A stretch of 64,000 bases of DNA from an uncultured virus (IMG/VR IMGVR_UViG_3300028832_000125). Its lineage: Duplodnaviria > Heunggongvirae > Uroviricota > Caudoviricetes. How positions within the stretch are numbered: position 1 is the stretch's first letter; the number at the start of each line of letters is the position of its first letter. Location of the stretch: the IMG/VR virus record IMGVR_UViG_3300028832_000125, one strand, 5' to 3'. Shown piece after piece: positions 366 through 44,182 of the stretch. The notes under the pieces are model-generated. The model did not search any database, had not been told where the DNA came from, and was given only the letters and a program-made list of their open reading frames with translations. Position numbers and translations under genes: made by a program.

Positions 366-451
366 TTATTCCAATGCGCAATGGGAAAAGGGCACAAAAG
401 ATGTGCTAAGAGCAATGATTTAACAATTTTAATTAGTTTAATTAGAAACGT

Positions 452-670
452 ATGAGAAAAGTAGCAAGAGAGTTGTGGCAACTCTGGAAAAGCCAGACTG
501 GTTGGAGCAACCAGACCACCTTACAGAAACTTATCTCCTGTTGGTGGAGTTTATCGTTTGCAGGATTGTGCCTCGGTGGCGGCATCATCGCCACCACAGC
601 CGTAGTTACTAACTTCGCGTGCGCCAGTTATTGCCTGGTGAAGTACGTGCCAGAACCAAAGGAGGATTGA
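452..670 (+). CDS. small membrane protein
   Basis: ORF with hydrophobic C-terminal half, first gene after the promoter. Confidence 0.6.
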   Translation: MRKVARELWQLWKSQTGWSNQTTLQKLISCWWSLSFAGLCLGGGIIATTAVVTNFACASYCLVKYVPEPKED

Positions 671-672
671 CT

Positions 673-1518
673 ATGAAGCCGAAAAACGTTAAGCTGTTCA
701 AGCAGTTCCTTGACTTCCGTGGCCTCGATAAGATGTTCAGAGGCTTGTATAAATCATACCGTTTCAACAACAACCCAGAGGATTTCGATGAGTATCTGGA
801 GCAGACCGATGCGTTCTACGTCATACCGCTTGCCTTCGATGCCAATAAGATTAAGGCAGAGAGCGACTTCAACGGTGATTTCTGGGCCTCTCTCAATAAG
901 AAGTGGTTGAAGTATATGAACGCACAGGCCAAGCACGGGTACTATAAGGATGAAATCATCGTCCCCAGAGTTCCCGTGAAGAATCCAGACGGCACCATCC
1001 ACAAGTCACCCGTTGCCGTCAACGAGCAGCCCGCGCCTCCCGTCATGCCAGAGCCGGAACCAGAGGAAACGGAAGAGGAAGTGACCGTCATAGACCATGA
1101 GTGGTCTGGCCTCGACCTCGCACCCGTCACCCTCGTAGGGAGAAAGAGCATGGAGACTCCCGGCCCTCTGGAGTTGAGGGTATGCACCACAAGCGGAAAC
1201 GTGGTCGTACTGAGCAACCACATCGCCCATCCCGTCATACAGTTCGGACTTGACACTATGGATATACAGGTTGACCGCAACACCAACCAACTTGTGCTGC
1301 TGTTCGGAAAGGGTCTTACCTACAACCTTCGCAAATACTCATCAGACCTGTATTCTGTCTCTCACAAGGCCATCATCGAGAACCTGTCTAAGTACGTAAA
1401 GACGAAGTTCAGCGAGAAAAAGGCATACTTCATCAAGGTCAAGGAAAAGGTGTGGAACAAAGACCATACCAAATGTGCGGTCATCGTCACCACTGACTAT
1501 ACCGAGAAAGAGAGGTAA
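673..1518 (+). CDS. hypothetical protein
   Basis: Long ORF in operon; ATG 673 preferred. Confidence 0.75.
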   Translation: MKPKNVKLFKQFLDFRGLDKMFRGLYKSYRFNNNPEDFDEYLEQTDAFYVIPLAFDANKIKAESDFNGDFWASLNKKWLKYMNAQAKHGYYKDEIIVPRVPVKNPDGTIHKSPVAVNEQPAPPVMPEPEPEETEEEVTVIDHEWSGLDLAPVTLVGRKSMETPGPLELRVCTTSGNVVVLSNHIAHPVIQFGLDTMDIQVDRNTNQLVLLFGKGLTYNLRKYSSDLYSVSHKAIIENLSKYVKTKFSEKKAYFIKVKEKVWNKDHTKCAVIVTTDYTEKER

Positions 1519-1520
1519 GC

Positions 1521-1748
1521 ATGGCAAATACGGTTATCCAGAAGAACGTGCTCGTTCTTGACATCATGCTCAACGGCTCATTCATCTGCCAGATGAAGAT
1601 GCCGCACTGCCCTCTGTTCCCCGTTGATGAGAGGGAGGTGAACAAATTCGTCACGGACAGGAAGCCAAGTCTCAAAGGCAAGGCTTTCAAGGTCGAGTTT
1701 TCCAATGCAGCCCCGTTGTTCAGGGGTGACGCTAACGTAATCCTCTGA
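1521..1748 (+). CDS. hypothetical protein
   Basis: Tightly packed ORF. Confidence 0.65.
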   Translation: MANTVIQKNVLVLDIMLNGSFICQMKMPHCPLFPVDEREVNKFVTDRKPSLKGKAFKVEFSNAAPLFRGDANVIL

Positions 1749-1751
1749 GTC

Positions 1752-2186
1752 ATGGCTATCACGGTGTTTGTTCTATTCGTGGCATACGCATTATGCTGTA
1801 TCGCTGACGGGCCGGACGTGAAGCCTGTCATCAAGAAACGTCTGGGAAAGTATCTGGAGGTGCAGGCAAACCGCCTGTACCCCATCCAGTACGTCCATCC
1901 CGTAATGCTCTCTGGGAATATCAAGAAAGTAAACAACGCCCTGCGTATCAATGAGCGTGAGGTCATGGAAGTCATGTTCCGCAGGGGCTGTACCTCTGAT
2001 GAGGCCAAGGCCGAGATTGTAAACATGGCTAAGAAGGAGTTGGCAGAGTCATACCCTGCCACACTCGTAAGGGAAGGGTTCATGACATTCGAGACGCATG
2101 AGAACTTCGATGGGGCCATATACGTGAAATCATGCCTGCATGTAGCAAATTTCAAGAGATATGAAGATACTGAGATTTTTCCGTAG
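1752..2186 (+). CDS. hypothetical protein with N-terminal hydrophobic segment
   Basis: ORF in operon. Confidence 0.6.
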   Translation: MAITVFVLFVAYALCCIADGPDVKPVIKKRLGKYLEVQANRLYPIQYVHPVMLSGNIKKVNNALRINEREVMEVMFRRGCTSDEAKAEIVNMAKKELAESYPATLVREGFMTFETHENFDGAIYVKSCLHVANFKRYEDTEIFP

Positions 2187-2616
2187 TACGTTCACAAGGA
2201 ACATTCTTGTCTGGAAGTTCTATACCTTCCGTGAGTTCTTTGAGAAAGGCGGCTATATCCATACGCTGATACCCGGCTCAGAGAATGACTATTACACGTA
2301 CCGCTCCTATGAGACGTTCGTCAATGACTACCCAGATAACATGTGGCGTGTGGGTGACAAGACCAGATATGTACTGGGCGAGTCGGAGGCCACACCAGAG
2401 AACGTCCCAGAACCTGGCTTCGTATGCCGTGTGCCGAAGCCAGTACCGAGGTATGAGAACGTGGCCATAGCCATCATCATCCTGGGACTGCTCATCGGAC
2501 TGGTTACGATGTTCTGCATCAGTAGCGTGGTCGGATTCCTCTATGTCGCTGCCGTCTCTACCGTCATCGGCATGCTCCTTTACCGCAACAGCATGAAAGT
2601 AATCATCAACAAATAA
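2161..2616 (+). CDS. membrane protein with two C-terminal TM segments
   Basis: Hydrophobic C-terminus. Confidence 0.65.
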   Translation: MKILRFFRSTFTRNILVWKFYTFREFFEKGGYIHTLIPGSENDYYTYRSYETFVNDYPDNMWRVGDKTRYVLGESEATPENVPEPGFVCRVPKPVPRYENVAIAIIILGLLIGLVTMFCISSVVGFLYVAAVSTVIGMLLYRNSMKVIINK

Positions 2617-2620
2617 AGTT

Positions 2621-3069: not shown

Positions 3070-3095
3070 CCTTCGCTTCTTTGTGTTTTCTTGCC

Positions 3096-3132
3096 AACGT
3101 CCGCTGTCAGCAATGACGGTGGGCGTTTTTTT
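3096..3132 (+). terminator. intrinsic terminator
   Basis: AACGTCCGCTGTCA-GCAA-TGACGGTGGGCGTT hairpin followed by a T run. Confidence 0.8.
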
Positions 3133-3144
3133 ATTGAACAAATA

Positions 3145-5473: not shown

Positions 5474-5506
5474 ATTATATGTTTCACTTATTAAACACTA
5501 AGAGCA

Positions 5507-6457
5507 ATGGGATTGATTAAGAAAAGTAACGAAATCGCTATTCAGCGAAATGTGAAGATGATGGTTTACGGCCAGGCAGGTATGGGTAAGACTACCCTCG
5601 CCCTCTCTGCGCCCAACCCTCTGTTGCTTGACTTCGACAACGGAGTTAAGCGAGTGAACAACGCGCATCTGGGAGATAACGTTGGTATCGTCCAGATTTC
5701 CAACTGGCAGGAGGTCGTGACTCTGCTCACCACTGAGGCGGCAGAACTTGCGCCCTTCGGAACTATCGTTGTTGATACCATCGGTAAGATGATGGACTTC
5801 ATCATCACATACCGTTGCGGTGGTCGCAATCCTCGCATGCAGGACTGGGGAACCATCAACAGTGATTTCAAGTGGTTTGTGGGTGCTCTCTCCAATCTGG
5901 GAAAGCACATCATCTTCGTGGCACACAGGGACACCAGAAAGGAGGGTGATGATACCGTCTTCGTTCCGGCCCTGCGTGAGAAGTCGTACAACTCCATCGT
6001 GACGGAGTTAGACCTTCTGGGCTATCTGGAAATGAAGAATGAGAACGGACTGCAGAAGCGTTCCATCACATTCGACCCCACCTCCCGCAATGACGGTAAG
6101 AACACCTGTCAACTGCCTGGAGTGATGTTCATCCAGAACATTCTCGACCAGAACGGACAGCCTACTGGAGCCAATGACTTCATCGAGAAGCAAATCATCG
6201 CCAAGTACCAGGGTATGATAGCAGTCAAGGAAAAGGCTGCACAGGATTACCAGAAGGCACTTGAAGAGATTAAGATGGGAGTGGAGCAGATTACCGATGC
6301 ACAGGGAGCCAACCACTTCATCGCTCATATCAAGGATTATGCGAACCTCGGTAACAGCATCATCATCTTCGCAAGAGACCTGTTCAGTAAGAAGGCCAAG
6401 GCCCTCAACTTGAAGTATAACAAGGAGTCAAAGCAGTACGAGGATGCAGCAGCTTAA
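5507..6457 (+). CDS. AAA ATPase, Sak4-like recombination protein
   Basis: Walker A GQAGMGKT, Walker B IVVD; located in recombination module. Confidence 0.8.
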   Translation: MGLIKKSNEIAIQRNVKMMVYGQAGMGKTTLALSAPNPLLLDFDNGVKRVNNAHLGDNVGIVQISNWQEVVTLLTTEAAELAPFGTIVVDTIGKMMDFIITYRCGGRNPRMQDWGTINSDFKWFVGALSNLGKHIIFVAHRDTRKEGDDTVFVPALREKSYNSIVTELDLLGYLEMKNENGLQKRSITFDPTSRNDGKNTCQLPGVMFIQNILDQNGQPTGANDFIEKQIIAKYQGMIAVKEKAAQDYQKALEEIKMGVEQITDAQGANHFIAHIKDYANLGNSIIIFARDLFSKKAKALNLKYNKESKQYEDAAA

Positions 6458-10312: not shown

Positions 10313-10401
10313 ATGAGACAGGCCGTTGGTGGCACATTCATACGATTAATAAAAACTAAGGCTCACCAACGGCCATCTTTTTCAAGAAAGCACTAAGAGC
10401 A

Positions 10402-11580
10402 ATGAAATATCAATTAAGAGACTATCAGCAGAACGCCAGTAATGCAGCACTGAGGGCATTCAACGCTACGGGTGCAAGGAACGGCTTGCTCATCCTGCCT
10501 ACGGGTGCAGGAAAGAGCCTCGTTATTGCAGACATAGCATCCAAGTTGAACGGCCCGCTGTTGATCCTGCAACCGTCAAAGGAGATTCTGGAACAGAACT
10601 TCGCCAAGTTGCAGAGTTACGGCTGTTGGGACGCTTCCATCTATTCCGCTTCCGTTGGTCGCAAAGACATAAACAGAATCACCTTTGCAACCATCGGCAG
10701 CGTCATGAACCACATGGATGAGTTCATGCACTTCAAGAATGTCATGATAGATGAGTGTCACGGAGTCAACAGCAAGGCAGGGCAGTACAAGGAGTTTATC
10801 GAGGCTACTGAGCGCAGGGTGATAGGTCTTACCGCCACTCCCTACAGACTGGTATCATACAGGGGTGGCAGTATGTTGAAGTTCCTCACCAGAACGAAAC
10901 CGCGCATATTCTCAGATGTCCTGTACTACTGCCAGATTTCCGATTTACTCGGCAAGGGCTATCTGGCAAACCTCAGATACTTCGACTGTACCAAACTCGA
11001 CATGAGCAGGGTGAAGTCAAACTCCACTGGTGCGGACTTCGATGACAAGTCACTCAAAGAAGAGTACAAGCGTATCGGCTTCGGTGACCAGTTGTCATCT
11101 ACTACCATGAGGGTGTTGAAGCCGAAGAGCGGCATACCCAGAAAGGGCGTGTTGGTGTTCACCCGGTTCATCGAAGAGGCCGACACTCTGGCGATGAGGC
11201 TTAGGTCTGTAGGCATCAGAGCGGCCATCGTCACGGGTGATACTCCTAAGAGAGAGCGTGAGGATATTCTGGAAGACTTCAAGGCCGGACGTATAAAGGT
11301 TGTTGCCAATGTCGGGACGCTGACTACAGGCTTCGACTATCCAGAATTAGATACGGTGATACTCGGCAGGCCCACGAAGTCACTGGCCCTGTACTACCAG
11401 ATGGTAGGCCGTGCCATCCGTCCGTGCAAGGGCAAGGATGGTTGGGTAATAGACCTCGGAGGGACATACAAGGTCTTCGGTAACGTGGCCAACCTCAAAA
11501 TAGGTCTGGAACCACTCAGCACCGCAAAGTGGTGCATTTCATCAAACGGAAAGCAATTAACAAACGTAATGTTCAGATAA
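10402..11580 (+). CDS. superfamily 2 DEAD/DEAH helicase
   Basis: PTGAGKS, DECH, TAT and QMVGRAIR motifs. Confidence 0.92.
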   Translation: MKYQLRDYQQNASNAALRAFNATGARNGLLILPTGAGKSLVIADIASKLNGPLLILQPSKEILEQNFAKLQSYGCWDASIYSASVGRKDINRITFATIGSVMNHMDEFMHFKNVMIDECHGVNSKAGQYKEFIEATERRVIGLTATPYRLVSYRGGSMLKFLTRTKPRIFSDVLYYCQISDLLGKGYLANLRYFDCTKLDMSRVKSNSTGADFDDKSLKEEYKRIGFGDQLSSTTMRVLKPKSGIPRKGVLVFTRFIEEADTLAMRLRSVGIRAAIVTGDTPKREREDILEDFKAGRIKVVANVGTLTTGFDYPELDTVILGRPTKSLALYYQMVGRAIRPCKGKDGWVIDLGGTYKVFGNVANLKIGLEPLSTAKWCISSNGKQLTNVMFR

Positions 11581-13875: not shown

Positions 13876-14577
13876 ATGTCAGACGGATGGGTTAAGATAC
13901 ATCGGAAATTCCTTGATTGGGAATGGTACGACAAATCGGAAATGGTGCACCTGTTTCTCCATTTGTTGCTGAACGCCTGCACCTCAGACAGGCGATGGCA
14001 AGGCATACCTATCAGAAGAGGTCAGGTAATCACTGGCCGCAGGAAAATCAGCGAGGCTACTGGCCTCAGCGAACAGAAGATAAGAACCTGCATGCAAAGG
14101 TTGATTGAATCTGGCGAAATTGAGGTGGAACCAACCAACAAGTTTTCTATAGTAACTATCTGTAAATACGAAAGTTACCAAGACTGCCAAAATGAAAGTA
14201 ACCAACAAACAACCAATGAGGAACCAACGGCAAGCCCTACGGAGCCCATAAAGCCTAAGAAGACCAAAGAGGAAATAAAGGCAGAGACTGACAGACGCAT
14301 GAAGGAGTTCTATAACTCCCTTATCCCATACGTTCAGACTTACGGCAAGGAAATGGTGAGGGAGTTCTATGACTACTGGAGTGAGGTGAATAAGTCCGGC
14401 AGTAAGATGAAGTGGGAGCAGGAGCCTACATGGGTACTGGATAAGAGACTGGCCAGATGGTCAAGACACGATAAAAAGTATAAGAGCAATGATACAGACG
14501 GTAGCAGAAATTCTACAGCAGAAACAAGAGCACAGGACGCAGCAAGCGTCATTGCCAGCCTTGCGGCAGAAGAGTAA
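13876..14577 (+). CDS. phage replication initiator (N-terminal wHTH)
   Basis: GWVKIHRKFLDWEWY...RGQVITGRRKIS; C-terminal FYDYWSE domain. Confidence 0.8.
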   Translation: MSDGWVKIHRKFLDWEWYDKSEMVHLFLHLLLNACTSDRRWQGIPIRRGQVITGRRKISEATGLSEQKIRTCMQRLIESGEIEVEPTNKFSIVTICKYESYQDCQNESNQQTTNEEPTASPTEPIKPKKTKEEIKAETDRRMKEFYNSLIPYVQTYGKEMVREFYDYWSEVNKSGSKMKWEQEPTWVLDKRLARWSRHDKKYKSNDTDGSRNSTAETRAQDAASVIASLAAEE

Positions 14578-15316
14578 GGAACTTGTTGCCACCTACGGCA
14601 ACAGAGAAAGTTTCCTCACCACGTTCAATCCAGACGTGCAGCGTGAGATATGCGGCAATACAGATGTCTGTTTCTTCGGTGGTGCTCCTACCCTCTCCCT
14701 TCTGAATAACACCTATGGCGAGAAGACTGCTGCCATGTGGCTCGTTCCTCAACTCTATAACCTCTCTGAATATTGCGGATGCCGTGACAAACTCAGTGCG
14801 AACCAGTTGAAGGAGTGTGCCAGTGTGATAGCCTCAGAGTTCCATTTCCTGTCGGTGACAGAGTTGATGCTTTTCTTCCATCGGTTCAAGGCAGCGAGGT
14901 ACGGACGTTTCTACGGAACCGTTGACCCGCTCATCATCACTGAGAGCCTGCGTAAGTTCCTAGGTGAGCGTATCGCTGAGTATGACAGACATGACAAAGA
15001 GGAAAAGGAGCGCAGGGAGGCAGAGGAAGCCAAGACCGCCATCAGTTGGGAAGAGTTCAGCATGAGGGAGTACGGCGAGGTACGGCCTCATCCTCTCAGC
15101 CGGAAGATAGAGAGACCAGATGACGGCATTTCTGAGGAACAGAGAAAGAAGTATGATGAGGAACGTCAGAAAATGATGATAAGAACTGCCAAGTTTGCAA
15201 AGTCCATCATTACGGACACACTGACAGATGATGACACAAAGGCCATCTTCGCCAGACAGTTCAAGCGGCACTGGGGAATGACACCACAGGAGTTTTTAGA
15301 CAAGTACGACAAATAA
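14489..15316 (+). CDS. replication-associated protein, putative helicase loader
   Basis: Follows the initiator; ELMLFFHRFKAARYGRFYG motif. Confidence 0.6.
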   Translation: MIQTVAEILQQKQEHRTQQASLPALRQKSKELVATYGNRESFLTTFNPDVQREICGNTDVCFFGGAPTLSLLNNTYGEKTAAMWLVPQLYNLSEYCGCRDKLSANQLKECASVIASEFHFLSVTELMLFFHRFKAARYGRFYGTVDPLIITESLRKFLGERIAEYDRHDKEEKERREAEEAKTAISWEEFSMREYGEVRPHPLSRKIERPDDGISEEQRKKYDEERQKMMIRTAKFAKSIITDTLTDDDTKAIFARQFKRHWGMTPQEFLDKYDK

Positions 15317-15326
15317 TATAAGAGCA

Positions 15327-15596
15327 ATGAAACCAGAGAAGAAACGATTACCGATGACCCTGCAAGACAAAGTTGAGTGGTACAAGGCCATCTACCAGAA
15401 ACAGGGCAGGAAGCCCGACACTGGCACGGTCTTCATGGATGCCTATATGCAGGCCATGGATGACGTACAGGCAGCGTTGAACTGGCGTGATGAGGGCAAG
15501 TCAGGCACATACTACTCAGACATCATCCAGAAAGTCCAGAGTCTCGTTGTCGAGCGGAACCGTCAGAATAAAGCATGGAGGGAGCAGCATGGATAG
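15327..15596 (+). CDS. hypothetical protein
   Basis: AAGAGCA-ATG start. Confidence 0.65.
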   Translation: MKPEKKRLPMTLQDKVEWYKAIYQKQGRKPDTGTVFMDAYMQAMDDVQAALNWRDEGKSGTYYSDIIQKVQSLVVERNRQNKAWREQHG

Positions 15597-18453: not shown

Positions 18454-18553
18454 GGTTAAAAAGAGTTGGTGAGGTGAAAAAAGAGTCCTTTTCGTTTTGT
18501 AATTTCAGTAATTTTTTGTAACTTTGCAGTATAGAATTTGAATAAGAGCAATG
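18454..18553 (+). promoter_or_regulatory. class A promoter cassette 1
   Basis: GTTAAA..GAGTT...TTTTG..TTCAG..TTTTTTGTAACTTTGCAGTA...AAGAGCAATG. Confidence 0.8.
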
Positions 18554-18934: not shown

Positions 18935-19185
18935 TATGGGACAGACCAAGCGTAAGAACGTCACCAGAATCCGGCTCACGGGCATCTTCACCGACTGGCA
19001 GGGTAAGATGAGGGAGCGGTGGATGAATGAGACCCTGCTACTCAGAACTGCCAGGAAGGTAGGCGATGAGGAAAATGTCAATAACTACGTCCTGGGCCTG
19101 CTGAACAGAGCGCAAGACACAGGGCAAATCACCTTCGAGAAAGTCAAGTAAGTTACAGAGCAATGAAACCAAAAGAAATTAGAAT

Positions 19186-20650: not shown

Positions 20651-21084
20651 TGGCAAAGTTGGAGTACACGGTAAGAGCCCATATCGGGAAGGTGTATGCT
20701 GAGAATCATTTCGGCAGGGCGTTAATCGGTGAGGGTGTCGGTGCCATCGAGGCACTGGCAAGGGAACTGGTCGTAGAACCTGCCAGGGTCGATGCCTTCA
20801 TCGAAGAGTTCAACAAGCACTTTCCAGAACCAGACTGCCCTATAGACATCGTGGTAAGGGTGGATGACGGCTTTGACTTCGGTGACAGGGAGGTACAGGT
20901 CTATAACACGCACACCTTCCGCATCGATGATGTTAAGCTGCCGGAACTGATAGACTGTTCCGTAGTCATGGAGAGGCCGGAAGTACCGCCGCCACCGTAC
21001 AGGCCGAAACTCCTTGCCTATGACAAGCGCAGGAACTACTCAAAGAAAGGTGGTTGGAACCGTATTCGTTCACGTTTATTTTAA
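20650..21084 (+). CDS. hypothetical protein
   Basis: Packed ORF. Confidence 0.6.
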   Translation: MAKLEYTVRAHIGKVYAENHFGRALIGEGVGAIEALARELVVEPARVDAFIEEFNKHFPEPDCPIDIVVRVDDGFDFGDREVQVYNTHTFRIDDVKLPELIDCSVVMERPEVPPPPYRPKLLAYDKRRNYSKKGGWNRIRSRLF

Positions 21085-21095
21085 TCGATAAAGGT

Positions 21096-21710
21096 ATGTT
21101 TATATTAGGAAGAGGCAAAGCCAGAAACAGGAAGACGGGCGAAACCGTCTATGTTGTCAGCCACAACGGAGAGGGTGACAAACGGAGAAAGACGGATTGG
21201 GTCAGTTACATTGACGCTAATCTGGAAGAGCACGAAATGGTCAAAGGGCTTAACGTCTATTGGGATTTCGAGGAAGTCAGCAACTATGAGGAAAGAGAGA
21301 AGGTCAGGGCCTATGAGACGCACCTGTGCATATTCTCTGGAATGGCCATGCAGTCGCTCATGCGTACAAAGAGAATCGAGGATTTGAATGAGGAAGGTTG
21401 TGTTGATTTCCTTACCAATCTGTCTATCGACTACGCCAAGGAACTTTGTGCCAAACTGGATAAGGTTGATTTGGAAGAGTTGATGAATCCGAAGCAGGAG
21501 CCGGAACCAGAGGAAAAGTATGAAGTTGCCATTGGCGAGACGGTGGAGTTCCAAGGTGAGCGTTTCCATTCCACGGAAGTAGCGGATAATGAAGACTGTA
21601 CTGGCTGCGCGTTCAAAGAGATTGAAGACTGCAAATTCTGCGGCTATTGCTACAAAGACAATCGCAGTGACGGTAAGTGTGTCATCTTCGTGAAAGGAGG
21701 TAGCAAATGA
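21096..21710 (+). CDS. hypothetical protein with Cys-rich C-terminus
   Basis: ORF. Confidence 0.65.
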   Translation: MFILGRGKARNRKTGETVYVVSHNGEGDKRRKTDWVSYIDANLEEHEMVKGLNVYWDFEEVSNYEEREKVRAYETHLCIFSGMAMQSLMRTKRIEDLNEEGCVDFLTNLSIDYAKELCAKLDKVDLEELMNPKQEPEPEEKYEVAIGETVEFQGERFHSTEVADNEDCTGCAFKEIEDCKFCGYCYKDNRSDGKCVIFVKGGSK

Positions 21711-22423: not shown

Positions 22424-22586
22424 TCCAGAGATTAACGCCCGCAGGCTATTGCCTCAATAATATGGATGAGGCCGAATTGCGCTCACTCCAAAGACTGATA
22501 AAGTCCGGCGGTCTCGTTGATGGCCGTGACTGGAACGGAATATCAAACCAGATAGATGAAATGTTAAACCCTAAAAAGCAAGAGAA

Positions 22587-24007: not shown

Positions 24008-24125
24008 GGTTAAATAGGGTTAAGTGACTGAAAATAAAGGCTTTTCCGTTTTGATTATTCAGAAATTTTTTGTAACTTTGTAGTACAAAAGATGAAATAA
24101 TAACTTTCAAAATTTTAGAGCAATG
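24008..24125 (+). promoter_or_regulatory. class A promoter cassette 2
   Basis: Same repeated block, ending TAGAGCAATG. Confidence 0.8.
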
Positions 24126-24515: not shown

Positions 24516-24562
24516 CAAGGTCACGGGGTGGCCAACCACCACCCCACCTAAATATAAGAGCA

Positions 24563-24919
24563 ATGAAAACGATTAAGGAAACGAAAGCCTACCAGATGGC
24601 AGTTGAGAATCTGGAAAACGAGAGTTACGACCTACAGGACAGTTTCAAGAATGAGGCCATAGCCCTTGCAGTTGCAGACCTTGAAGCGAAGTTGCACAGT
24701 AACGCTAACAATGCCACCGTGCAGATGGGTGACTTCATCATCAAGGCCAGAAGTACCCGCACCGCCTCCTTCGTGAGCGTGTCACATGAAGACTGCGGCA
24801 CAGGAGTTTCGCGCTCCCTCGCCTCTCTGGTTGACGGCAAGAGACCCGCCACCGATGATGAGATTAAGAACCTCGTTGAAATGGTCAATGAAGCCTGGTA
24901 TCACTGCGTAAACGATTAG
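24563..24919 (+). CDS. hypothetical protein
   Basis: AAGAGCA-ATG start. Confidence 0.7.
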   Translation: MKTIKETKAYQMAVENLENESYDLQDSFKNEAIALAVADLEAKLHSNANNATVQMGDFIIKARSTRTASFVSVSHEDCGTGVSRSLASLVDGKRPATDDEIKNLVEMVNEAWYHCVND

Positions 24920-25203: not shown

Positions 25204-25215
25204 AAATCAAGAGCA

Positions 25216-25644
25216 ATGAAAATCGTCAATCAAGCATTATTAAAAGTCGCAGAAGAGGTAGCCAGACGTTTCGGCTACATCGAAGTCGAGCATTACACCC
25301 AGAATCTGATGAAGTCCGATTTTTGGGGTACATCGTTCTATGCCACAAAGCAGTATGTGGAATCTGAATATAAGGAGATACCCACCTTTGAGGTAGTGAA
25401 GTATATCCTGCCTGTCTTCGAGGATGAGAAGGATGAGAATAAGAGCCGTCCACGTATCGAGTTGAGGGTGCGCTTCCGTAACCCGCGCATCGGCATCTAT
25501 TTCCCAGAAGGTGGATATGTCGGTCTGGAATATTCACCAGAGGGCGAGTTCAAGGAGGCCCAGATATTCGATGAGAGAGGGTATGACTACCTGCCTGTCA
25601 TCAAAGAGAAGGTTGCTCACTGGATTAACAAGTTGAAGTCATGA
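25216..25644 (+). CDS. hypothetical protein
   Basis: AAGAGCA-ATG start. Confidence 0.7.
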   Translation: MKIVNQALLKVAEEVARRFGYIEVEHYTQNLMKSDFWGTSFYATKQYVESEYKEIPTFEVVKYILPVFEDEKDENKSRPRIELRVRFRNPRIGIYFPEGGYVGLEYSPEGEFKEAQIFDERGYDYLPVIKEKVAHWINKLKS

Positions 25645-30666: not shown

Positions 30667-30757
30667 CCGACCATTTTTAAGTTAAAATATTTGTGTAACT
30701 CGCTAAAAATGACTAACTTTACCGTTGTAAACAAATGAACTTTTAATACAAAGAGCA

Positions 30758-31297
30758 ATGGAATTAAGAACAGTCAAAGGTTACGATTTTTATGAAGTAT
30801 CATCGGCAATGCAGAAGGCGATTCGCAGGGCAGATGTGAAGACAGCGGGTTATTTTGCTTTGGAGTTGTGGCATTCCGGCTATCGTGATTACGTCTGGAA
30901 AAGACTCTTCACAATCAGCGCAGAAGACTGCTACGGCCTCATCACCAAAGAGATTGAGGCGTTGTGGCAGGGCCATGAGTTAGTTAATAAGAAGCAGCCT
31001 GTTCCCAAAGGGAGGGTGTTCGTCAGTAAGGCTGTCCTGCTTCTGTGCGAGTGTCGCAAGTGCCGTGACGCAGACCATTTGCAGAACTTCGTCTATGACA
31101 AGAGCAAGGTTGAAAACATTGACCAGTGGCTCGAAGATGCCAGGAACTATCCTATCCCCATCCCTCAGTACACGTATGACGTGCACACCAGAAAGGGCAA
31201 GATGATGGGTCGCACAAAAGACCAGTTCTTCAGAGAAGAGTTTGATTCGCTGAAACCACGGGAGCCGGGTTTGTTTGATGATTTCTTCAAAACATAA
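30758..31297 (+). CDS. stand-alone MgsA/RarA C-terminal-like helical protein
   Basis: SAMQKAIRRAD...WKRLFTISAED...YDVHT. Confidence 0.65.
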   Translation: MELRTVKGYDFYEVSSAMQKAIRRADVKTAGYFALELWHSGYRDYVWKRLFTISAEDCYGLITKEIEALWQGHELVNKKQPVPKGRVFVSKAVLLLCECRKCRDADHLQNFVYDKSKVENIDQWLEDARNYPIPIPQYTYDVHTRKGKMMGRTKDQFFREEFDSLKPREPGLFDDFFKT

Positions 31298-33940: not shown

Positions 33941-33995
33941 AGTGGAAAATCCGGCAATTTTTTGTATTATCAAAAATATTTTGTAATTTTGCACC

Positions 33996-34068
33996 GAAAT
34001 CGTTTCTAATTTTGACGATTTCATTGCTCTTAGTGCATCGGTTCGTGAAGAATAGATGCACCTTTTTT
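33996..34068 (+). ncRNA. candidate antisense small RNA carrying a CAUUGCUCUU seed
   Basis: TTTG-19nt-TAATTTTG promoter; hairpin GAAATCGT/ACGATTTC; seed at 34022-34031; terminator GTGCATC/GATGCAC plus T6. Confidence 0.7.
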
Positions 34069-34073
34069 GTATT

Positions 34074-34179
34074 CGTTAAATAGAGTTGGTCAGGGAAAAA
34101 TAAAGGGTTTTCCGTTTTGATAATTCAGAAAATTTTTGTATCTTTGCAGTACAGAAATCAATTAAATAGAAGAGCAATG
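34074..34179 (+). promoter_or_regulatory. class A promoter cassette 3
   Basis: Repeated block. Confidence 0.8.
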
Positions 34180-34437
34180 AAATCGAGCAAATCACAACTT
34201 CAAAAGAAGTACAATAAGATGGCTTACCAGTATGACCCTTGGAAGCAGCAGATAGTTGTCGAGACTACCAGTGGTGAAATGGTCATCGAGTTAATGACAT
34301 CAGACAGGCAGTTCCACCTTATCAAGGTTGAGCGGCATGACAGCCAGGACATCATCGGCCTGGATGCTATCAATGAGAAAGTCTCATCCATGATTGCCAG
34401 TGGAGAGGTTATCAACGTTTATATTGATTCACTCTAA
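34177..34437 (+). CDS. hypothetical protein
   Basis: AAGAGCA-ATG start. Confidence 0.7.
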   Translation: MKSSKSQLQKKYNKMAYQYDPWKQQIVVETTSGEMVIELMTSDRQFHLIKVERHDSQDIIGLDAINEKVSSMIASGEVINVYIDSL

Positions 34438-34449
34438 ACGCACGGAGCC

Positions 34450-34773
34450 ATGGAGAAAGATATGATTACCCTGCAGGAACTTTACAAGTTCATATGCCAG
34501 TCTGAGGGCATCACCCAGAAGTCACTCAGATTCAAGCGTGTCGGTAAGGGCGGTGCCTGCTGCACCTATTCTGGAAAACGTGTCTATTCCATCAGTATAG
34601 ACCTCGCAAGAATCTGTATCGGTGCTGCATACGCCCTCTGTCATGAGGTAGCCCACCAGATACTCATTGAGAGGGATGGCAACGCCACCCATAACAGGGC
34701 ATTCAAGAAAGAAGAGCAGAGACTGGTGAAAGCATACGCCACCTGCCCTATAGCAAACAAGTTGATATTCTAA
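34450..34773 (+). CDS. SprT-like HExxH metallopeptidase
   Basis: LCHEVAH...HNRAF. Confidence 0.65.
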   Translation: MEKDMITLQELYKFICQSEGITQKSLRFKRVGKGGACCTYSGKRVYSISIDLARICIGAAYALCHEVAHQILIERDGNATHNRAFKKEEQRLVKAYATCPIANKLIF

Positions 34774-34784
34774 ATTCAAGAGCA

Positions 34785-35306
34785 ATGGAAACGAAGGAAA
34801 CGAAAGTCGTAAAGACGAAAACGAAGATGTGGAACGGCAAAGCCTACACCATCAAACTGACTGAGGAAAACGTGGCAGATATGCGCAAGGATGCCGAGGT
34901 CTGTAAGTTGAATGGCCATGACTTCGAGTATTACCTAAACCAGATGTTGACGTTCTGGATGCGCGATGACTGGCCGGAGGTTGCGGCACAGGTGTTTGCC
35001 GAGGCTGATCCTGTTCTGGCAGTCGGCATGGGAGCCACCATGAATCTCTGGAGTGACCGCAGGGCCATGACCATCGTAGAGGTTGTTACACCCAGAAAGG
35101 TTATCGTGCAGGAAAATGAAACGAAGTGTCTGGACTACTACGGTGGCCGCTACGAAGTTCTGGATTCCCTGGCAGAGTACATGAGCAGGCACACGTTCAC
35201 CCTCAGAAAGAATGGAACATGGGTAGAGGAAGGCCAGCCTAAGAAGTTCGGCAGCGTCACTCTCACTGTTGGGTTCCGGCATCATTACATAGACCCGAGT
35301 TTCTGA
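34785..35306 (+). CDS. hypothetical protein
   Basis: AAGAGCA-ATG start; ends Y.DPSF. Confidence 0.75.
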   Translation: METKETKVVKTKTKMWNGKAYTIKLTEENVADMRKDAEVCKLNGHDFEYYLNQMLTFWMRDDWPEVAAQVFAEADPVLAVGMGATMNLWSDRRAMTIVEVVTPRKVIVQENETKCLDYYGGRYEVLDSLAEYMSRHTFTLRKNGTWVEEGQPKKFGSVTLTVGFRHHYIDPSF

Positions 35307-35307
35307 C

Positions 35308-35592
35308 ATGAAGACGTATATTGTTCACCCGGTTGTTGATAGCCATATATGGGTAACCACCAGATGCAAGTCTGGGCGTAAGGAGGTGGAAAGAATATCA
35401 TTCCAGATAGACTGTCCCGGCAAGTGGTTTGATGATGAGTATAATTGTCATGTGGATGGCTGTGACTATCCGTTTGGCACTGTTGATGAGGCTCTGGAAC
35501 ATGGGGCGAAGGTGTTGCAGTTCAATGGGGAGCCGTATAGGTTTGTTCACACAGAAGAGAAGTATAATCCTTATGAGCGTTATGAAGTATAA
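35308..35592 (+). CDS. hypothetical protein
   Basis: Packed ORF. Confidence 0.6.
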   Translation: MKTYIVHPVVDSHIWVTTRCKSGRKEVERISFQIDCPGKWFDDEYNCHVDGCDYPFGTVDEALEHGAKVLQFNGEPYRFVHTEEKYNPYERYEV

Positions 35593-35761
35593 AGTCAAAG
35601 TCATTGAGACCCTATCCAGAATCGTAGAGGTTGAGGCCAGTAATTCCGATGAGGCTTGGGATAAGGTCGAGGCACAGTGGAAGTCATCGGAGATAGTGTT
35701 GGACGGTGATGACTATGAGGGTCACGAAATATACGTTGTTCATGGAAACGAAGACAAGTAA
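35582..35761 (+). CDS. DpnD/PcfM-like small protein
   Basis: KYKVKVIETLSRIVEVEA....A...V...W...EIVL. Confidence 0.7.
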   Translation: MKYKVKVIETLSRIVEVEASNSDEAWDKVEAQWKSSEIVLDGDDYEGHEIYVVHGNEDK

Positions 35762-35972
35762 GGCCGTGGAGTTGCTGAGAGGTGGCCGGATTCGTGAGGC
35801 ACTGGCCATCTTCCGCACCTTCCGCATGGGGTTCACCTCAGATGAGCGCAGAACCATCCAGATAGCGAGTGAGAGCATGAGCGGCCATAGCCGTTTCTAT
35901 GAGAGTCTGGGAATCAGCGTTGTTGCAGAGCAGCAGAAAGCCGTTGAGATACTGACCAGAAAGTACCTGTAG
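35742..35972 (+). CDS. hypothetical protein
   Basis: Packed ORF. Confidence 0.65.
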   Translation: METKTSKAVELLRGGRIREALAIFRTFRMGFTSDERRTIQIASESMSGHSRFYESLGISVVAEQQKAVEILTRKYL

Positions 35973-35979
35973 CCTCAAA

Positions 35980-36094
35980 GGTTAAATAGAGTTGGCCAGT
36001 GGAAAATAGAGTCTTTTTCGTTTTGATATTTCAGAGAAAAACGCTATCTTTGTAGTACATTTCTGATAATAACAATTTAATGGTAAGAGCAATG
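35980..36094 (+). promoter_or_regulatory. class A promoter cassette 4
   Basis: Repeated block. Confidence 0.75.
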
Positions 36095-36439
36095 AAATTA
36101 GTCACGAAACAAGTAGAGAAGGAGTTAGCGAAATATCCGCTGTACTCACAGGATGGCAAAAGGCAGGATGCCGTTTGCGTAGTCAAGTTTTTCCTCACTG
36201 GAGGCGCACACACATGGTACATACTGGAGGCGAATCTGGAAGAGGATACGCTGTATGGAATAACCGTCAACGGGTACGGGGAGTGCGAGTACGGGTATAT
36301 CAGTCTGAAAGAACTGGAGAGCCTGCGTAACAGTTGGGGCCTGGGTGTCGAGAGAGACATCTGCCACAAGCCTACGCCCCTCTGTCAGATGAAGGATGAG
36401 TGCTATCTGAGCAAGTTTATCAATGAACTTTATTCGTAA
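36092..36439 (+). CDS. DUF2958-like protein
   Basis: VVKFF..G..TWYILE...E.GYISL.EL...VERD. Confidence 0.75.
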   Translation: MKLVTKQVEKELAKYPLYSQDGKRQDAVCVVKFFLTGGAHTWYILEANLEEDTLYGITVNGYGECEYGYISLKELESLRNSWGLGVERDICHKPTPLCQMKDECYLSKFINELYS

Positions 36440-36577
36440 GGGCTATGGCACGGGTTAAGGAGATATGCGAAAACTGCAGGTTCTGGAAGTGCATGGGCTA
36501 CCACTACTATGAGTGTACGAAATATAACGAGCAGATGAGCCGTGATGACAGTTGCACCCAGTTTGAAGAAGAGTAGC

Positions 36578-36922
36578 ATGGAAGAGTTGGAGTTATTCCC
36601 AGAGCATGGCAACGGTGAAGACATGTCACCGATACTGAGGCAGTATCGTGATTTCAAGGCACTATATCCAGACGCTATAGTGCTGTTTGAAGTCGGTGAC
36701 TCCTATGAGGCATACGAGCAGGACGCTGAGGCTGTTGATAAGATACTTCACGGCAACAGGTACTATTGCGGCATCTTCAACAAGCATACTGGCAAGGAGT
36801 GGATGCACGCAATATCGTTCCCTCATTACAATCTCGATGTCTTTCTGCCGAAACTGGTGAAGGCAGGAAAGAAGGTGGCAATATGTGAACCACTGGAAAA
36901 ACCGATGGTGAATCAGACATAA
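36578..36922 (+). CDS. stand-alone MutS domain I protein
   Basis: SPILRQY..FK..YPDAIVLFEVGDSYEAY..DA...LPKLVKAG.KVAICE. Confidence 0.8.
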   Translation: MEELELFPEHGNGEDMSPILRQYRDFKALYPDAIVLFEVGDSYEAYEQDAEAVDKILHGNRYYCGIFNKHTGKEWMHAISFPHYNLDVFLPKLVKAGKKVAICEPLEKPMVNQT

Positions 36923-36924
36923 GG

Positions 36925-37366
36925 CTGTGCGCCGGGGTTCGAGCCTCCGGCACCAACAACGCGTGAGAGTTATCCGCATTTTCGGTAACACCTTTGAAGT
37001 GGCACTCTCGAAACATCAGAAACGGACAAAAACAGGCACTTGAAAGCGATGTGCGACCAGACGGCCACTGCCTGGGGGCAAGGAAAAGTCAGTACAAACC
37101 AGTCGAAGCCATCGAGAGACTTACAAAGCGATGGAGGTTGTATGCAACCACCGAGAGCGTAACATTGGGCGATAAAGGAAAGCGCAGGGTGTGAAGTTCC
37201 ACCCACCGAAAGGACTGCACCTGTCGCATGGCGGCATTTGCTGACACCTCAACAAGGTAGCCGTTTGCGGACGTATGAACCTGCACGCAGAGAGCACGCG
37301 TAATCATCCTCTGGAGCATACCAGTAATCAAAGCATGGGACAGCGGTAAAAGTCGCTGTTTCCCCC
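36925..37366 (+). ncRNA. candidate large structured non-coding RNA
   Basis: About 440 nt without a convincing ORF; T-loop-like GGTTCGAG hairpin, several stems and a terminal hairpin. Confidence 0.4.
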
Positions 37367-37370
37367 ATTG

Positions 37371-37476
37371 GGTTAAAAAGAGTTGGTTGGCCAAAAATAG
37401 AGTTCAATCGGTTTTGATGATTCAGAAATTTTTTGTAACTTTGCAGTATAGAAATTTAATAAGAGTAAGAGCAATG
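37371..37476 (+). promoter_or_regulatory. class A promoter cassette 5
   Basis: Repeated block; shares CCCATTGGGTTAAAAAGAGTTGGT with cassette 1. Confidence 0.8.
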
Positions 37477-37776
37477 AAAACGATTAAAATTCAGTTCCAG
37501 AGCAACGGTGAGACCGTTAAGAGAACAGCGATTGTCAATGACTGTCTGAACGAGTTGAGCAACAGCCAGAGAAACCAAGCCTGTGACATCAACAATGAGT
37601 GTTGGAGTGACGGCTTTTGGTCTCTGTTCTTTGAGGGAGAGCCGGGCACCCAGTATGAAGTCGAGTTCGAGTTTGATACTGAGAACCATCGTGAGACATT
37701 GAAACCTGTCAAGGCCATAACATGGGTAGATGACATTATCGAGGATGTGCAACCAGTGAAAGTAACAGTTAAGTAG
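37474..37776 (+). CDS. hypothetical protein
   Basis: AAGAGCA-ATG start. Confidence 0.7.
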   Translation: MKTIKIQFQSNGETVKRTAIVNDCLNELSNSQRNQACDINNECWSDGFWSLFFEGEPGTQYEVEFEFDTENHRETLKPVKAITWVDDIIEDVQPVKVTVK

Positions 37777-37800
37777 TAACCCTATAAAAAGTTAAGAGCA

Positions 37801-38442
37801 ATGAACACGTATTCAAAATTCTGTCCTAACGTCTTCGTAGCAAAGTGCGAAGAGAGGCATGAGAAAGGTGAGATTATCACCGTAGAAACGAAGTATGGAA
37901 AAGAGAATGAGCACATCGTCCACAATCTGGTTAAGCAGGGTGGCGGTTTCTTCTACTACTCCATCACCAGAGTTGACGGCTACAACTGCCAGGAAAGGGC
38001 CAAGCGCAAGGTTGAGAGGTATGAGCAGGCTGCTGCCAATGCCGACAGACGCGCAGGCGAGTATTTCGACAAGTCCAATAAGGATGCGGGGTTCCTCTCT
38101 CTGGGAGAGCCTATCAAGGTCGGGCATCACAGTGAGCGCAGACACCGAAAGGCCATTGAGGATGCACAGCGCAACACTGGTAAGATGGTCGCTGAAATGG
38201 ATAAGGCTGAGTCATACCGCGAGAAGGCTGACGGATGGGCGCAGCATACTGAGGATATTAACCTGTCGATGCCGGAGAGTATTCAGTATTATGCTGAACT
38301 TCTGGAAAAGGCAAAGGCGTACCACCAAGCCATGAAGGATGGCAAGATAGAGCGTGAGCACGCCTACTCTCTGACCTATGCCAAAAAGGCTGTCAACGAA
38401 GCGCAGAAGAATTACGATATGGCAGTAAGGCTATGGGGTTGA
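37801..38442 (+). CDS. DUF3560-like protein
   Basis: GEPIKVGHHSERRHR motif. Confidence 0.8.
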   Translation: MNTYSKFCPNVFVAKCEERHEKGEIITVETKYGKENEHIVHNLVKQGGGFFYYSITRVDGYNCQERAKRKVERYEQAAANADRRAGEYFDKSNKDAGFLSLGEPIKVGHHSERRHRKAIEDAQRNTGKMVAEMDKAESYREKADGWAQHTEDINLSMPESIQYYAELLEKAKAYHQAMKDGKIEREHAYSLTYAKKAVNEAQKNYDMAVRLWG

Positions 38443-38514
38443 GGCGAAGAGGCGGTGATAACTTGATTCCCATGCGCTCATACTATGATGGCCGCATAAT
38501 AGGGTATCTGAGTC

Positions 38515-38736
38515 ATGAACCAGAGAGAACAGGAAGTTATGGTAGGAGCAAAGACGCAAACCGAAGCATGGCTGATACAGCAGATGTGGGACTGCCGCAG
38601 GGAAATCAACCTGTATAAGACGGAGCCGTATATGACCAATCCCACAAGGCATATCGCAACCTCATACATGAAGCGTTGCATGAACGGTTACCGCAGTCAG
38701 TTGGAACGGCACAGGCGATACCAGAAGAGTCACTAA
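38515..38736 (+). CDS. hypothetical protein
   Basis: ORF before terminator. Confidence 0.5.
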   Translation: MNQREQEVMVGAKTQTEAWLIQQMWDCRREINLYKTEPYMTNPTRHIATSYMKRCMNGYRSQLERHRRYQKSH

Positions 38737-38759
38737 ACAGTAGAAAAGCGGTGGTTTTC

Positions 38760-43100: not shown

Positions 43101-43117
43101 TTTTGTATCTTTGCAGC

Positions 43118-43345
43118 ATGGAACTGAAAGAAGAGTTGACGGCAAAAATGCACTCCGAGTTTACGGTTGATGCAGAGACCGACAGGAAGCACCGCGCAGG
43201 ATGCGTCTGGCGGCTTCTCGGCTTCGATGCCGCAAGGGAAGACATAGAACACTGGGCCAGTCGGTACGGTGTGACCTATGACACCTGCATGGAGTACAAG
43301 GGCTATTGGCAGAACCTCCGGCAGGGCATGAAAAGGCAGCGTTGA
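43118..43345 (+). CDS. small protein, putative immunity partner
   Basis: Directly after MuF-GNAT; own -7 box TATCTTTG at 43106; terminator-like hairpin 43331-43357. Confidence 0.6.
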   Translation: MELKEELTAKMHSEFTVDAETDRKHRAGCVWRLLGFDAAREDIEHWASRYGVTYDTCMEYKGYWQNLRQGMKRQR

Positions 43346-43364
43346 GGCTGTCTTTTTCCTTATA

Positions 43365-43494
43365 CGTTAAATAGAGTTGGTTAAGGCACTGTAGGCTGAA
43401 AATAATTGCTTTTCCGTTTTGATATTTCAGAAATTTTTTATTATCTTTGCAGTATAATAATAAAGATAATAACTTTCTAAATTCAAGAGCAATG
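43365..43494 (+). promoter_or_regulatory. class A promoter cassette 6
   Basis: Repeated block. Confidence 0.8.
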
Positions 43495-43800
43495 AAATAT
43501 CAGATTTTACAAGTTAGGGACGATGCAGAAAATTCGCGCTACATCATGTTTTCCAGTCTGGAAATGGTCGAGCACCTGGGCTTGAAGATTACCAGAGACC
43601 TGTACGAAAAGGTCTGGGAAGGTGAGATAGAAGCCTCTGGGAATGTCTATGAGACTCTGGAGCAAATCTTCTGCCAGTTCAACATCGGCAGGAAGCCGGA
43701 AGGGTATAAGGGCCATAGCCTCTCTGTATCTGACATCATCCAGTTGGATGACAAGTCATACTACTGTGACAGTTTCGGGTTTGAGGAAATAGAGTTGTAA
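43492..43800 (+). CDS. YodL-like domain protein
   Basis: LEQIFCQFN...P.GYKGHSLSVSDII...YYCDSFGF. Confidence 0.8.
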   Translation: MKYQILQVRDDAENSRYIMFSSLEMVEHLGLKITRDLYEKVWEGEIEASGNVYETLEQIFCQFNIGRKPEGYKGHSLSVSDIIQLDDKSYYCDSFGFEEIEL

Positions 43801-43820
43801 CCGTTAGACAGGCAGGAGCA

Positions 43821-44072
43821 ATGAAAAAGGGTATCAGCACCAGAATGAGGAACATCATGCATTCCTATATCGGAAAGAGTTACGATGTCTATTTCAGCGG
43901 TCATTACTACTGGACGTTGAAGATAACGGGGTTCCTGGGTGACACTGGCTATTTCACCACCGAGATAAACGATGGAACGAAGGTATGGGAGAGTAATGCG
44001 AGTTACGGCGAAATCAAGGCCGAGACAGGCAAGGGTACATACAGGGAGAGCCAAGAGGTTAAACAGAGTTAA
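43821..44072 (+). CDS. hypothetical protein
   Basis: GGAGCA-ATG start. Confidence 0.65.
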   Translation: MKKGISTRMRNIMHSYIGKSYDVYFSGHYYWTLKITGFLGDTGYFTTEINDGTKVWESNASYGEIKAETGKGTYRESQEVKQS

Positions 44073-44182
44073 GTCGCTGAAAATAAATGGTTTTCCGTTT
44101 TGATGATTCAGAAATTTTTTGTAACTTTGTAGTACAATATTAGAAACGATATTTATTCACAATTTAAAAGTTAAGAGCAATG
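44057..44182 (+). promoter_or_regulatory. class A promoter cassette 7
   Basis: Repeated block. Confidence 0.8.

Follow-up and report, generated by a model that had tools for sequence, protein, structure and literature searches.

A start-codon tag on early and accessory genes of a Bacteroidales prophage points to control by two predicted phage small RNAs

We analysed a 64,000-nucleotide (nt) stretch of DNA (hereafter, the window; IMG/VR record IMGVR_UViG_3300028832_000125, an uncultured member of the Caudoviricetes), a temperate prophage of siphovirus type from a gut bacterium of the order Bacteroidales. Our subject is the 10-nt sequence AAGAGCAATG, hereafter the tag, which includes the start codon of many early and accessory genes, together with two predicted small RNA (sRNA) genes, sRNA1 and sRNA2, that carry its exact complement. 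By codon-usage gene calls, 92 of the 95 window genes lie on the + strand, and gene names were taken from a PHROGs scan of 96 proteins and a Pfam scan of 84. These scans identify a repressor and a LuxR-type regulator; a replication-recombination module (Sak4, SSB, NinB and a helicase) plus several DNA methyltransferases; and late modules with small and large terminase, portal, head, tape-measure and tail genes. Two accessory islands (34100–38740 and 43400–46000) interrupt the structural module and encode families usual in conjugative elements, namely DpnD/PcfM, DUF2958, MutS domain I, DUF3560, YodL and SprT-like; their genes are candidate anti-defence or establishment genes. For comparison we used the best 80 of at least 562 stretches matched in a TerL scan of IMG/VR, plus 80 loci from bacterial genomes.

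An exact search finds 18 copies of the tag in the window, 16 on the + strand and two on the - strand. Dinucleotide shuffles hold a mean of 0.18 copies and at most one, and none of 100 shuffles reached 18. With one mismatch permitted, the number of matches rises to 27. The + strand copies, and four variants that stand at start sites, are as follows (aa, amino acids; ORF, open reading frame).

408–417, + strand: tag; ATG at 415, within the leader of the leftmost operon, begins a mini-ORF (Met-Ile-stop); pairs contiguously with sRNA1 over 19 nt
5500–5509, + strand: tag; start of a Sak4-like/AAA_24 recombination gene (5507–6457); 20 contiguous pairs with sRNA1
10395–10404, + strand: tag; start of a DNA helicase gene (10402–11580); 19 contiguous pairs with sRNA1; reverse complement weakly matched by covariance model R1 (see below)
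14482–14491, + strand: tag; start of a DUF6633 gene (14489–15316)
15320–15329, + strand: tag; start of an 89-aa ORF (15327–15596)
18544–18553, + strand: tag; start of a 127-aa ORF; class A promoter (see below) 17 nt before
24556–24565, + strand: tag; start of a 118-aa ORF (24563–24919)
25209–25218, + strand: tag; start of a 142-aa ORF
30751–30760, + strand: tag; start of a 179-aa ORF (phrog_16866)
34170–34179, + strand: tag; start of an 86-aa ORF, the first gene past sRNA1; class A promoter 23 nt before
34778–34787, + strand: tag; start of a 173-aa ORF
36085–36094, + strand: tag; start of a DUF2958 gene (115 aa); class A promoter before
37467–37476, + strand: tag; start of a 100-aa ORF; class A promoter before
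37794–37803, + strand: tag; start of a DUF3560 gene (213 aa), of a family tagged in 57 loci
43485–43494, + strand: tag; start of a YodL-like gene (102 aa); class A promoter before
44173–44182, + strand: tag; start of a 243-aa ORF; class A promoter before
19156–19165, + strand: variant CAGAGCAATG; ATG at 19163 opens a 15-codon ORF only
22580–22589, + strand: variant AAGAGAAATG; ATG at 22587 opens a 150-aa ORF
24116–24125, + strand: variant TAGAGCAATG; start of a 130-aa ORF; class A promoter before
43814–43823, + strand: variant AGGAGCAATG; start of an 83-aa ORF

A preliminary description of this DNA had listed all 16 of the + strand positions, the mini-ORF at 415 and the variants at 19156, 24116 and 43814, and each of these proved correct; the variant at 22580 and the two - strand copies, at 34022–34031 and 46163–46172, were absent from its list. 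Fifteen of the 16 + strand copies open ORFs of 86–392 aa. Aligned on the start codon, these copies span positions -7 to +3, with 2.0 bits of information there, and partial information at +4 to +6 (A in 13–14 of 16), -8 (T in 11 of 16) and -12 to -14 (A). Information is low elsewhere, identity being confined to the 10-mer. The genes so marked are not copies of one another, as far as blastp at E≤1e-3 can tell: it finds no similarity among the 15 tagged window proteins, and across all loci tagged genes fall into 60 families. An exact 10-nt box that includes the AUG marks at least 15 unrelated genes in one genome. The tagged set comprises recombination, replication and helicase genes, many small genes of unknown function and genes of the two accessory islands. 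The tag is lacking at the starts of the small and large terminase, portal, head-morphogenesis, major-head, tape-measure and tail genes, as judged by gene calls and PHROG names, so the earlier proposal that it is restricted to early and accessory genes holds in the window.

Read on the + strand, both - strand copies are the anti-tag CAUUGCUCUU, the exact complement of the tag, in non-coding DNA. Over the window and the 160 loci, an ORF of at least 40 codons follows 294 of 308 + strand copies, compared with 36 of 129 - strand copies, and the short ORFs after the latter are not conserved. In the window each anti-tag lies in a predicted sRNA gene, where it forms a seed that would pair with AAGAGCAAUG in the mRNA.

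33961–33991, + strand: predicted sRNA1 promoter; TTTG (33961–33964), 19 nt, TAATTTTG (33984–33991)
33997–34069, + strand: predicted sRNA1, about 73 nt, ends inferred; folds more stably than shuffled sequence (z -3.4); matches model R1, with covariation
34022–34031, + strand: sRNA1 seed CATTGCTCTT, exact tag complement
46080–46110, + strand: predicted sRNA2 promoter (class B); TTTG (46080–46083), 19 nt, TAACTTTG (46103–46110)
46116–46238, + strand: predicted sRNA2, about 120 nt, ends likewise inferred, in the leader of the head operon; folds more stably than shuffled sequence (z -3.0)
46163–46172, + strand: sRNA2 seed CATTGCTCTT, exact tag complement
46194–46226, + strand: sRNA2 terminator; stem ATTGCTCTG paired with CAGAGCAAT

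The sRNA1 site begins 20 nt past the stop codon of the large terminase gene and reads, in order, as the promoter, a 5' hairpin (AAAUCGU...ACGAUUU), a single-stranded linker that holds the seed, a GUGA-loop hairpin (34033–34061) and a run of six U (34063–34068). In sRNA2 a 5' hairpin is followed by the seed within a 22-nt loop, a terminator hairpin and a run of five U; the first ATG of the head operon, at 46256, lies 18 nt beyond. The predicted promoter and the hairpin with its U-run would make each sRNA a transcription unit of its own. The sRNA2 terminator stem is an internal copy of the seed–tag duplex in the window's lineage only, the terminator stems of relatives being unrelated. A scan of the window with Rfam 15 at gathering thresholds returned a tRNA only, and at E≤1 the two sRNA regions gave 0 hits, six sub-threshold matches being at chance level. 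The sRNAs are absent from Rfam, including its C4 antisense RNA family, in that no covariance model matches them.

Related loci preserve both RNAs. Counting the window, there are 82 sRNA1-type sites with 31 distinct sequences and 37 sRNA2-type sites with seven, and the signature of sRNA1 recurs in at least 110 contigs of IMG/VR. In all 25 of the diverse sRNA1 sequences that we aligned, the 12-nt TTCATTGCTCTT and the GUGA loop are invariant and both stems vary; single-sequence folds of all 31 distinct sequences give two hairpins with the seed between them, unpaired. A plain MAFFT alignment misaligned the stems and so yielded a poor RNAalifold structure; single-sequence folds and model-based realignment took its place. 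In the model-fitted alignment, 15 of 20 sRNA1 pairs show two-sided changes, and 87.4% of cells are paired, versus 71.3% when shuffled and 39–49% when slid. On four of five covariation measures the observed value lay beyond every shuffle; on the fifth, one shuffle attained it. The sequences indicate a conserved single-stranded seed with covarying flanks for sRNA1, and suggest it more weakly for sRNA2.

R1, a covariance model built from the sRNA1 sequences, matches the + strand only, directly past the terminase gene; of the 100 sources searched, 29 have such a match, four of them outside its training set. It has two weak extra matches, at L087 12721–12790 and at the reverse complement of the helicase target site of the window; over 151 sampled host-family genomes, under strict filters that left few candidates scored, it matched in G001 alone. 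A TAnnTTTG element stands upstream of 59 of 62 distinct anti-tag sites that have a downstream hairpin, at a distance of 25–30 nt at 38 sites, 48–52 nt at 18 and another distance at three. The + strand also folds better than its complement in all 31 distinct sRNA1 sequences (mean -27.5 versus -17.4 kcal/mol) and all seven distinct sRNA2 sequences (-37.9 versus -26.9 kcal/mol), with 92 and 42 G-U pairs, respectively. Three independent features, promoter, U-run and G-U pairs, thus agree in making the + strand the RNA strand.

Tag and seed occur together and, in several lineages, change together. At the 16 window sites, contiguous pairing extends over 12–20 nt with sRNA1 and 11–13 nt with sRNA2, and the longest duplexes (19–20 nt) form at the early-operon sites 408, 5500 and 10395. 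We used these contiguous-pair counts in place of whole-RNA duplexfold energies, which set tagged starts apart incompletely and placed some untagged ones near the top. No coding-strand 10-mer ending in ATG is more frequent than the tag in 61 of the 80 IMG/VR loci; 75 of these 80 hold at least one copy and 57 at least three. Among the 80 bacterial-genome loci, six hold at least three copies (Prevotella, Bacteroidaceae and a Paludibacteraceae-like metagenome-assembled genome), and the tag is absent or single in distant prophages of Chryseobacterium, Emticicia, Chitinophaga and similar hosts. Per locus, GAGCAATG averages 4.1–4.5 coding-strand copies where a seed-bearing hairpin is present versus 0.65 in 54 genome loci without one, means that are uncorrected for relatedness. 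Complete relatives carry one to three anti-tags alongside 2–23 tags over their whole records. Other 10-mers ending in ATG are over-represented in L144, L140, L094 and L122, and these we set aside as tandem coding repeats or a CRISPR-like array; in L140 such an array, of at least eight repeats with a spacing of about 66 nt, lies at 20915–21450 and adjoins a distantly related Emticicia prophage.

The clearest change is in the L098 prophage, whose seed is CATTGCTTTT and whose starts are AAAAGCAATG (twice), TAAAGCAATG (TAAA) and AGAAGCAATG (AGAA), with none of the AAGA type; C-to-U in the seed and G-to-A in the tag form a natural pair of changes here. L086 has tandem seeds, CATTGCTTTT and CATTGCTCTT, followed by a AAAAGCAATG start. 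In L123 the seeds are CATTGCTCAA in sRNA1 and CATTGCTCTA in sRNA2, and the starts are TTGAGCAATG, TAGAGCAATG and AAGAGCAATG, two of each. A second sample gave 15 TAGA starts in 23 loci with TAGA-type seeds, compared with 11 in 46 loci with other seeds. Pairing beyond the seed follows lineage as well: targets in G007 and G008 pair over a mean of 17.6–17.7 nt (up to 23) with their own sRNA1 versus 13.6–13.7 nt with that of the window, the duplexes reaching into lineage-specific flanks, and window sites 408, 5500 and 10395 pair over 19–20 nt with their own sRNA1 versus 12–14 nt with a foreign one. These comparisons argue for complementarity to several mRNA starts that changes along with them, with exceptions in L096, L091 and the window average.

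An RNA-binding protein could also read such a site. T4 RegA is a protein repressor of many early mRNAs that acts through degenerate, AU-rich operators overlapping the AUG, and the tag could be the operator of a phage repressor of that kind, the complementary RNAs being incidental, or decoys if the other strand is transcribed. Overlap with the AUG and presence throughout a class of early genes are traits that the tag shares with RegA operators, and since many window proteins belong to no family a novel binder is conceivable. Among the 96 proteins scanned with PHROGs and the 84 scanned with Pfam, many of them without a family, there is, however, no RNA-binding or RegA-like family. A protein operator would leave the invariant seed in two differently folded RNAs and the co-variation of seed and tag unexplained, and promoter, U-run and G-U pairs favour + strand RNAs, which bear the anti-tag and not the tag. 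We consider this explanation quite unlikely.

Several observations weigh against control by pairing sRNAs. The promoters, the RNA ends and the sRNAs themselves are predictions, and a simple terminator scan flagged neither sRNA hairpin. Covariation was counted on a model-fitted alignment of related sequences, so that its values are supportive and not probabilities. Of eight distinct minimum-energy folds, only four leave 80% or more of the sRNA2 seed unpaired. The outer two seed positions can mismatch: L096 has the seed CATTGCTCTG yet mostly AAGA starts, L091 has CATTGCTCAG yet TAGA starts, and L123 retains two AAGA starts without a perfect seed. The AAAA-type variant of L098 is one lineage, and as L306 and L307 are the same phage, it represents a single phage seen three times. 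Averaged over the 16 window targets, pairing with the window's own sRNA1 (15.4 nt) hardly exceeds that with a foreign one (15.0 nt), and sites 24556, 37467 and 15320 pair longer with a foreign sRNA1 type. The tags at these three sites run on as ATGAAAAC..., a longer match to the sRNA1 of other phages (hairpin GAAAACAC). Because accessory targets fit a foreign sRNA1, tagged cassettes may move, and be exchanged, between phage lineages.

The tag is neither a generic host start context, an alternative the preliminary description had itself raised, nor, as that description had also held, a Shine-Dalgarno element. Copies of the tag were located in whole host genomes that carry related prophages, and in four of five they cluster in the prophage: 19 of 25 lie within 42 kb of one contig in G003, 14 of 26 within 35 kb in G002, 11 of 26 within 38 kb in G001 and 5 of 12 within 16 kb in G005. 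In G004, a Parabacteroides genome, the tag is not enriched over a reversed control (24 versus 32). Of the 15 G001 copies outside the prophage, one is at a gene start, one is an internal Met codon and the rest lie within coding sequence. Since copies pile up in prophages and are rare at host starts, the tag is not a general initiation context of the host. Pairing with 16S rRNA was likewise rejected: the tag abuts the AUG, and the 16S rRNA of two host genomes holds no complement to it of 6 nt or more. The sole clear host gene start in G001 belongs to a GFO/IDH/MocA oxidoreductase gene (L174 701–1688), which has a TAnnTTTG box and an exact tag at its start; it may be a target of the phage sRNAs, or a chance match.

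We searched for TTTG-N19-TAnnTTTG, after the published Bacteroides -33/-7 consensus (PMC7366714), and found 12 full sites on the + strand versus 0.31 per strand in shuffles. Two families stand out.

18496, 24050, 34116, 36022, 37413, 43418 and 44099, + strand: class A promoters (tttgatgattcagaaattttttgtaactttg), seven near-identical sites
13722, 29212, 38813 and 46080, + strand: class B promoters (tttgttattcaaatagttttaactaactttg), four sites

All seven class A promoters have a tag or variant 17–43 nt downstream, with leaders of variable length. Five of them lie in the two accessory islands, where several genes have one of their own. None of the four class B promoters directly precedes a tag; one each stands before a DnaD-like gene, the packaging operon (which has the terminase genes at its end), the portal gene, and the head operon with its sRNA2 leader. 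Nine tags sit within operons that lack a class A promoter. Spacers are nearly identical within each promoter family, and a conserved AAAGAGTTGG-like box lies upstream; both suggest sites for regulators.

The promoter pattern also bears on the idea that the tag is no more than a preferred context for starts, or the junction of portable cassettes, spread along with accessory genes by recombination as in the promoter-stem-loop cassettes of T4-type phages, and that the 'sRNAs' are terminators derived from inverted gene starts, with no regulatory pairing. Seven near-identical class A promoters, each before a tag or variant, would fit a moving unit, as would the presence of tagged genes in accessory islands and their 60 families; the reverse complement of sRNA1 does resemble a gene start, such as that at 25209, and the better match of some window targets to a foreign sRNA1 hints at cassette movement. 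The shared identity, however, covers only 10–13 nt, too short for homologous exchange, with no repeat block and with promoter-to-tag leaders that vary between 17 and 43 nt, and the nine tags inside operons have no class A promoter to travel with. A mere terminator has no need of an invariant 12-nt single-stranded stretch beside drifting stems, seed and tag change together, and host genes do not use the tag. On balance we find this explanation unlikely.

The preliminary description had proposed that the tagged genes share a site of post-transcriptional control, recognised by antisense RNAs, by an RNA-binding protein, or by both. Its antisense half is well supported by sequence and comparison, on the basis of two + strand sRNA genes that expose the exact complement of the tag, covarying hairpins, an invariant seed and the co-change of seed and tag. 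We put at roughly 70% the probability that translation of the tagged genes is repressed by phage sRNAs that pair over their start codons, and tag and matching sRNA loops point to one RNA switch over the whole gene set. In the mechanism that we propose, the prophage would make two trans-acting sRNAs, each displaying CAUUGCUCUU, and the seed would pair with positions -7 to +3 of 16 sites on phage mRNAs. The duplex over the AUG would keep the 30S subunit off the message, and the block to initiation might be succeeded by mRNA decay, so that the tagged genes, early, replication and accessory alike, would fall silent as one set. A block to initiation is the most likely effect because the duplex covers the AUG within the region that the 30S subunit occupies. 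Expression of the sRNAs, repression and the timing of their action are what we infer. sRNA2 would rise alongside the late genes and switch the tagged set off; sRNA1, which has a separate promoter, could keep the accessory cassettes silent during lysogeny. Because the sRNA2 promoter is of the type found at the portal and packaging operons, and that of the tagged accessory cassettes differs, an early-to-late switch is the likeliest role of the system, with cassette silencing in the lysogen possibly another.

Pairing might instead activate or process, by opening inhibitory leaders or by guiding an RNase to mRNAs with short leaders. Hairpin-forming sequence does lie just 5' of the tags at 408, 5500 and 10395 and in the sRNA flanks, and it counts against repression in particular that the direction of regulation cannot be read off sequence. 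Most tags, however, stand in A/T-rich leaders without an evident hairpin, and a duplex that covers the AUG is, as described for sRNAs of Bacteroides, the classical geometry of repression (PMC7366714). Activation or processing seems to us very unlikely, and repression by pairing over the AUG remains our preferred reading.

Beyond repression itself, tag and seed could serve as an address system for a large family of gut Bacteroidales phages, an idea we hold tentatively and regard as rather doubtful. Captured accessory or anti-defence genes would join the regulon merely by gaining the tag, the sRNAs of a resident prophage would silence the tagged early genes of incoming relatives, a form of RNA immunity, and changed pairs would form heteroimmune escape groups; CATTGCTTTT/AAAAGCAATG would be one such group, and CATTGCTCAA and CATTGCTCTA with TTGA/TAGA tags another.

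The system is of a known kind, that of trans-acting sRNAs that occlude start regions and of phage antisense RNAs such as c4. GibS is described as an sRNA that represses translation in Bacteroides by annealing to an initiation region without a Shine-Dalgarno sequence (PMC7366714). Like GibS and other B. thetaiotaomicron trans sRNAs in that account, the present RNAs have a sigma-ABfr-type promoter and a conserved single-stranded seed, their annealing targets are initiation regions of the same type, and the host has no Hfq (PMC7366714). Unlike GibS as described there, they are phage-encoded, unrelated in sequence and without an Rfam match, their targets would be the phage's own genes, and these have an identical 10-nt box with the AUG in place of imperfect individual sites. 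The c4 RNA of P1 and P7 is likewise a phage RNA from the strand of its targets that pairs through short complementary stretches in loops; it is reviewed as blocking a ribosome binding site, with co-variation of RNA and target defining the heteroimmunity of P1 versus P7 (PMC12197685). That co-variation resembles the present CATTGCTTTT/AAAAGCAATG and CATTGCTCTT/AAGAGCAATG lineages. Unlike c4, which as reviewed acts on one operon (ant; PMC12197685), the window has 16 sites on unrelated genes over 44 kb, and there is no relation in sequence or in Rfam.

The comparison extends to two T4-type arrangements. As with RegA, a single factor would shut off a large set of early mRNAs at sites overlapping the AUG; unlike with RegA, an exact 10-mer forms the site, and its reader is most likely RNA. 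Promoter-early-stem-loop (PeSL) cassettes of T4-type phages are promoter-and-leader units that stand before diverse small accessory ORFs in plastic regions and are thought to work through DNA recombination. The repeated promoter-plus-leader units before diverse accessory ORFs are alike in the two systems; unlike the present units, PeSLs are not known to come with a complementary antisense RNA or a constant box at the start codon.

What is new here is the Bacteroidota setting, the identical AUG box on unrelated genes, the use of one seed by two structurally different sRNAs, and the spread of the system through uncultured gut phages. Full-text literature searches on Bacteroides prophage sRNAs and on phage-encoded sRNAs returned no description of it, and a search for the 10-mer returned unrelated work only, among the matches listed. 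A term search of a 2025 review on phage sRNAs finds no instance of 'Bacteroid' (PMC12197685). Megablast of 20 kb of the window against a phage collection gave no match, and in a protein search of that collection the best large-terminase identity was 32%, with no cultured or annotated relative on record.

Two further features of the window concern tRNA genes. A tRNA gene at 51087–51160 (+ strand), called tRNA-SeC by ARAGORN and tRNA by Rfam, lies between tail-chaperone-like genes and the tape-measure gene and has the anticodon UCA, which reads UGA; late ORFs appear intact under genetic code 11, and the tRNA may be a UGA suppressor. A partial tRNA gene (its 3' portion) occupies 57–130 (- strand) and includes the T-loop GGTTCGAATCC on that strand; ARAGORN finds no complete tRNA there, and the prophage probably has its attachment site and left end at this place.

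Temperate phages of Bacteroidales and Prevotella are among the commonest members of the gut virome, and to our knowledge almost nothing is known of how they regulate their genes. If the proposed pairing holds, this would be the first phage sRNA regulon in Bacteroidota, and the tag would provide a sequence rule by which early and accessory genes, the latter probably anti-defence genes, could be recognised, and their true starts located, across hundreds of uncultured phages. It would also open a testable route to RNA-based immunity groups. The address system, if true, would be a multi-gene counterpart of the c4 specificity of P1 and P7. Tag and seed would also supply compact orthogonal pairs for the engineering of gene control in Bacteroides.

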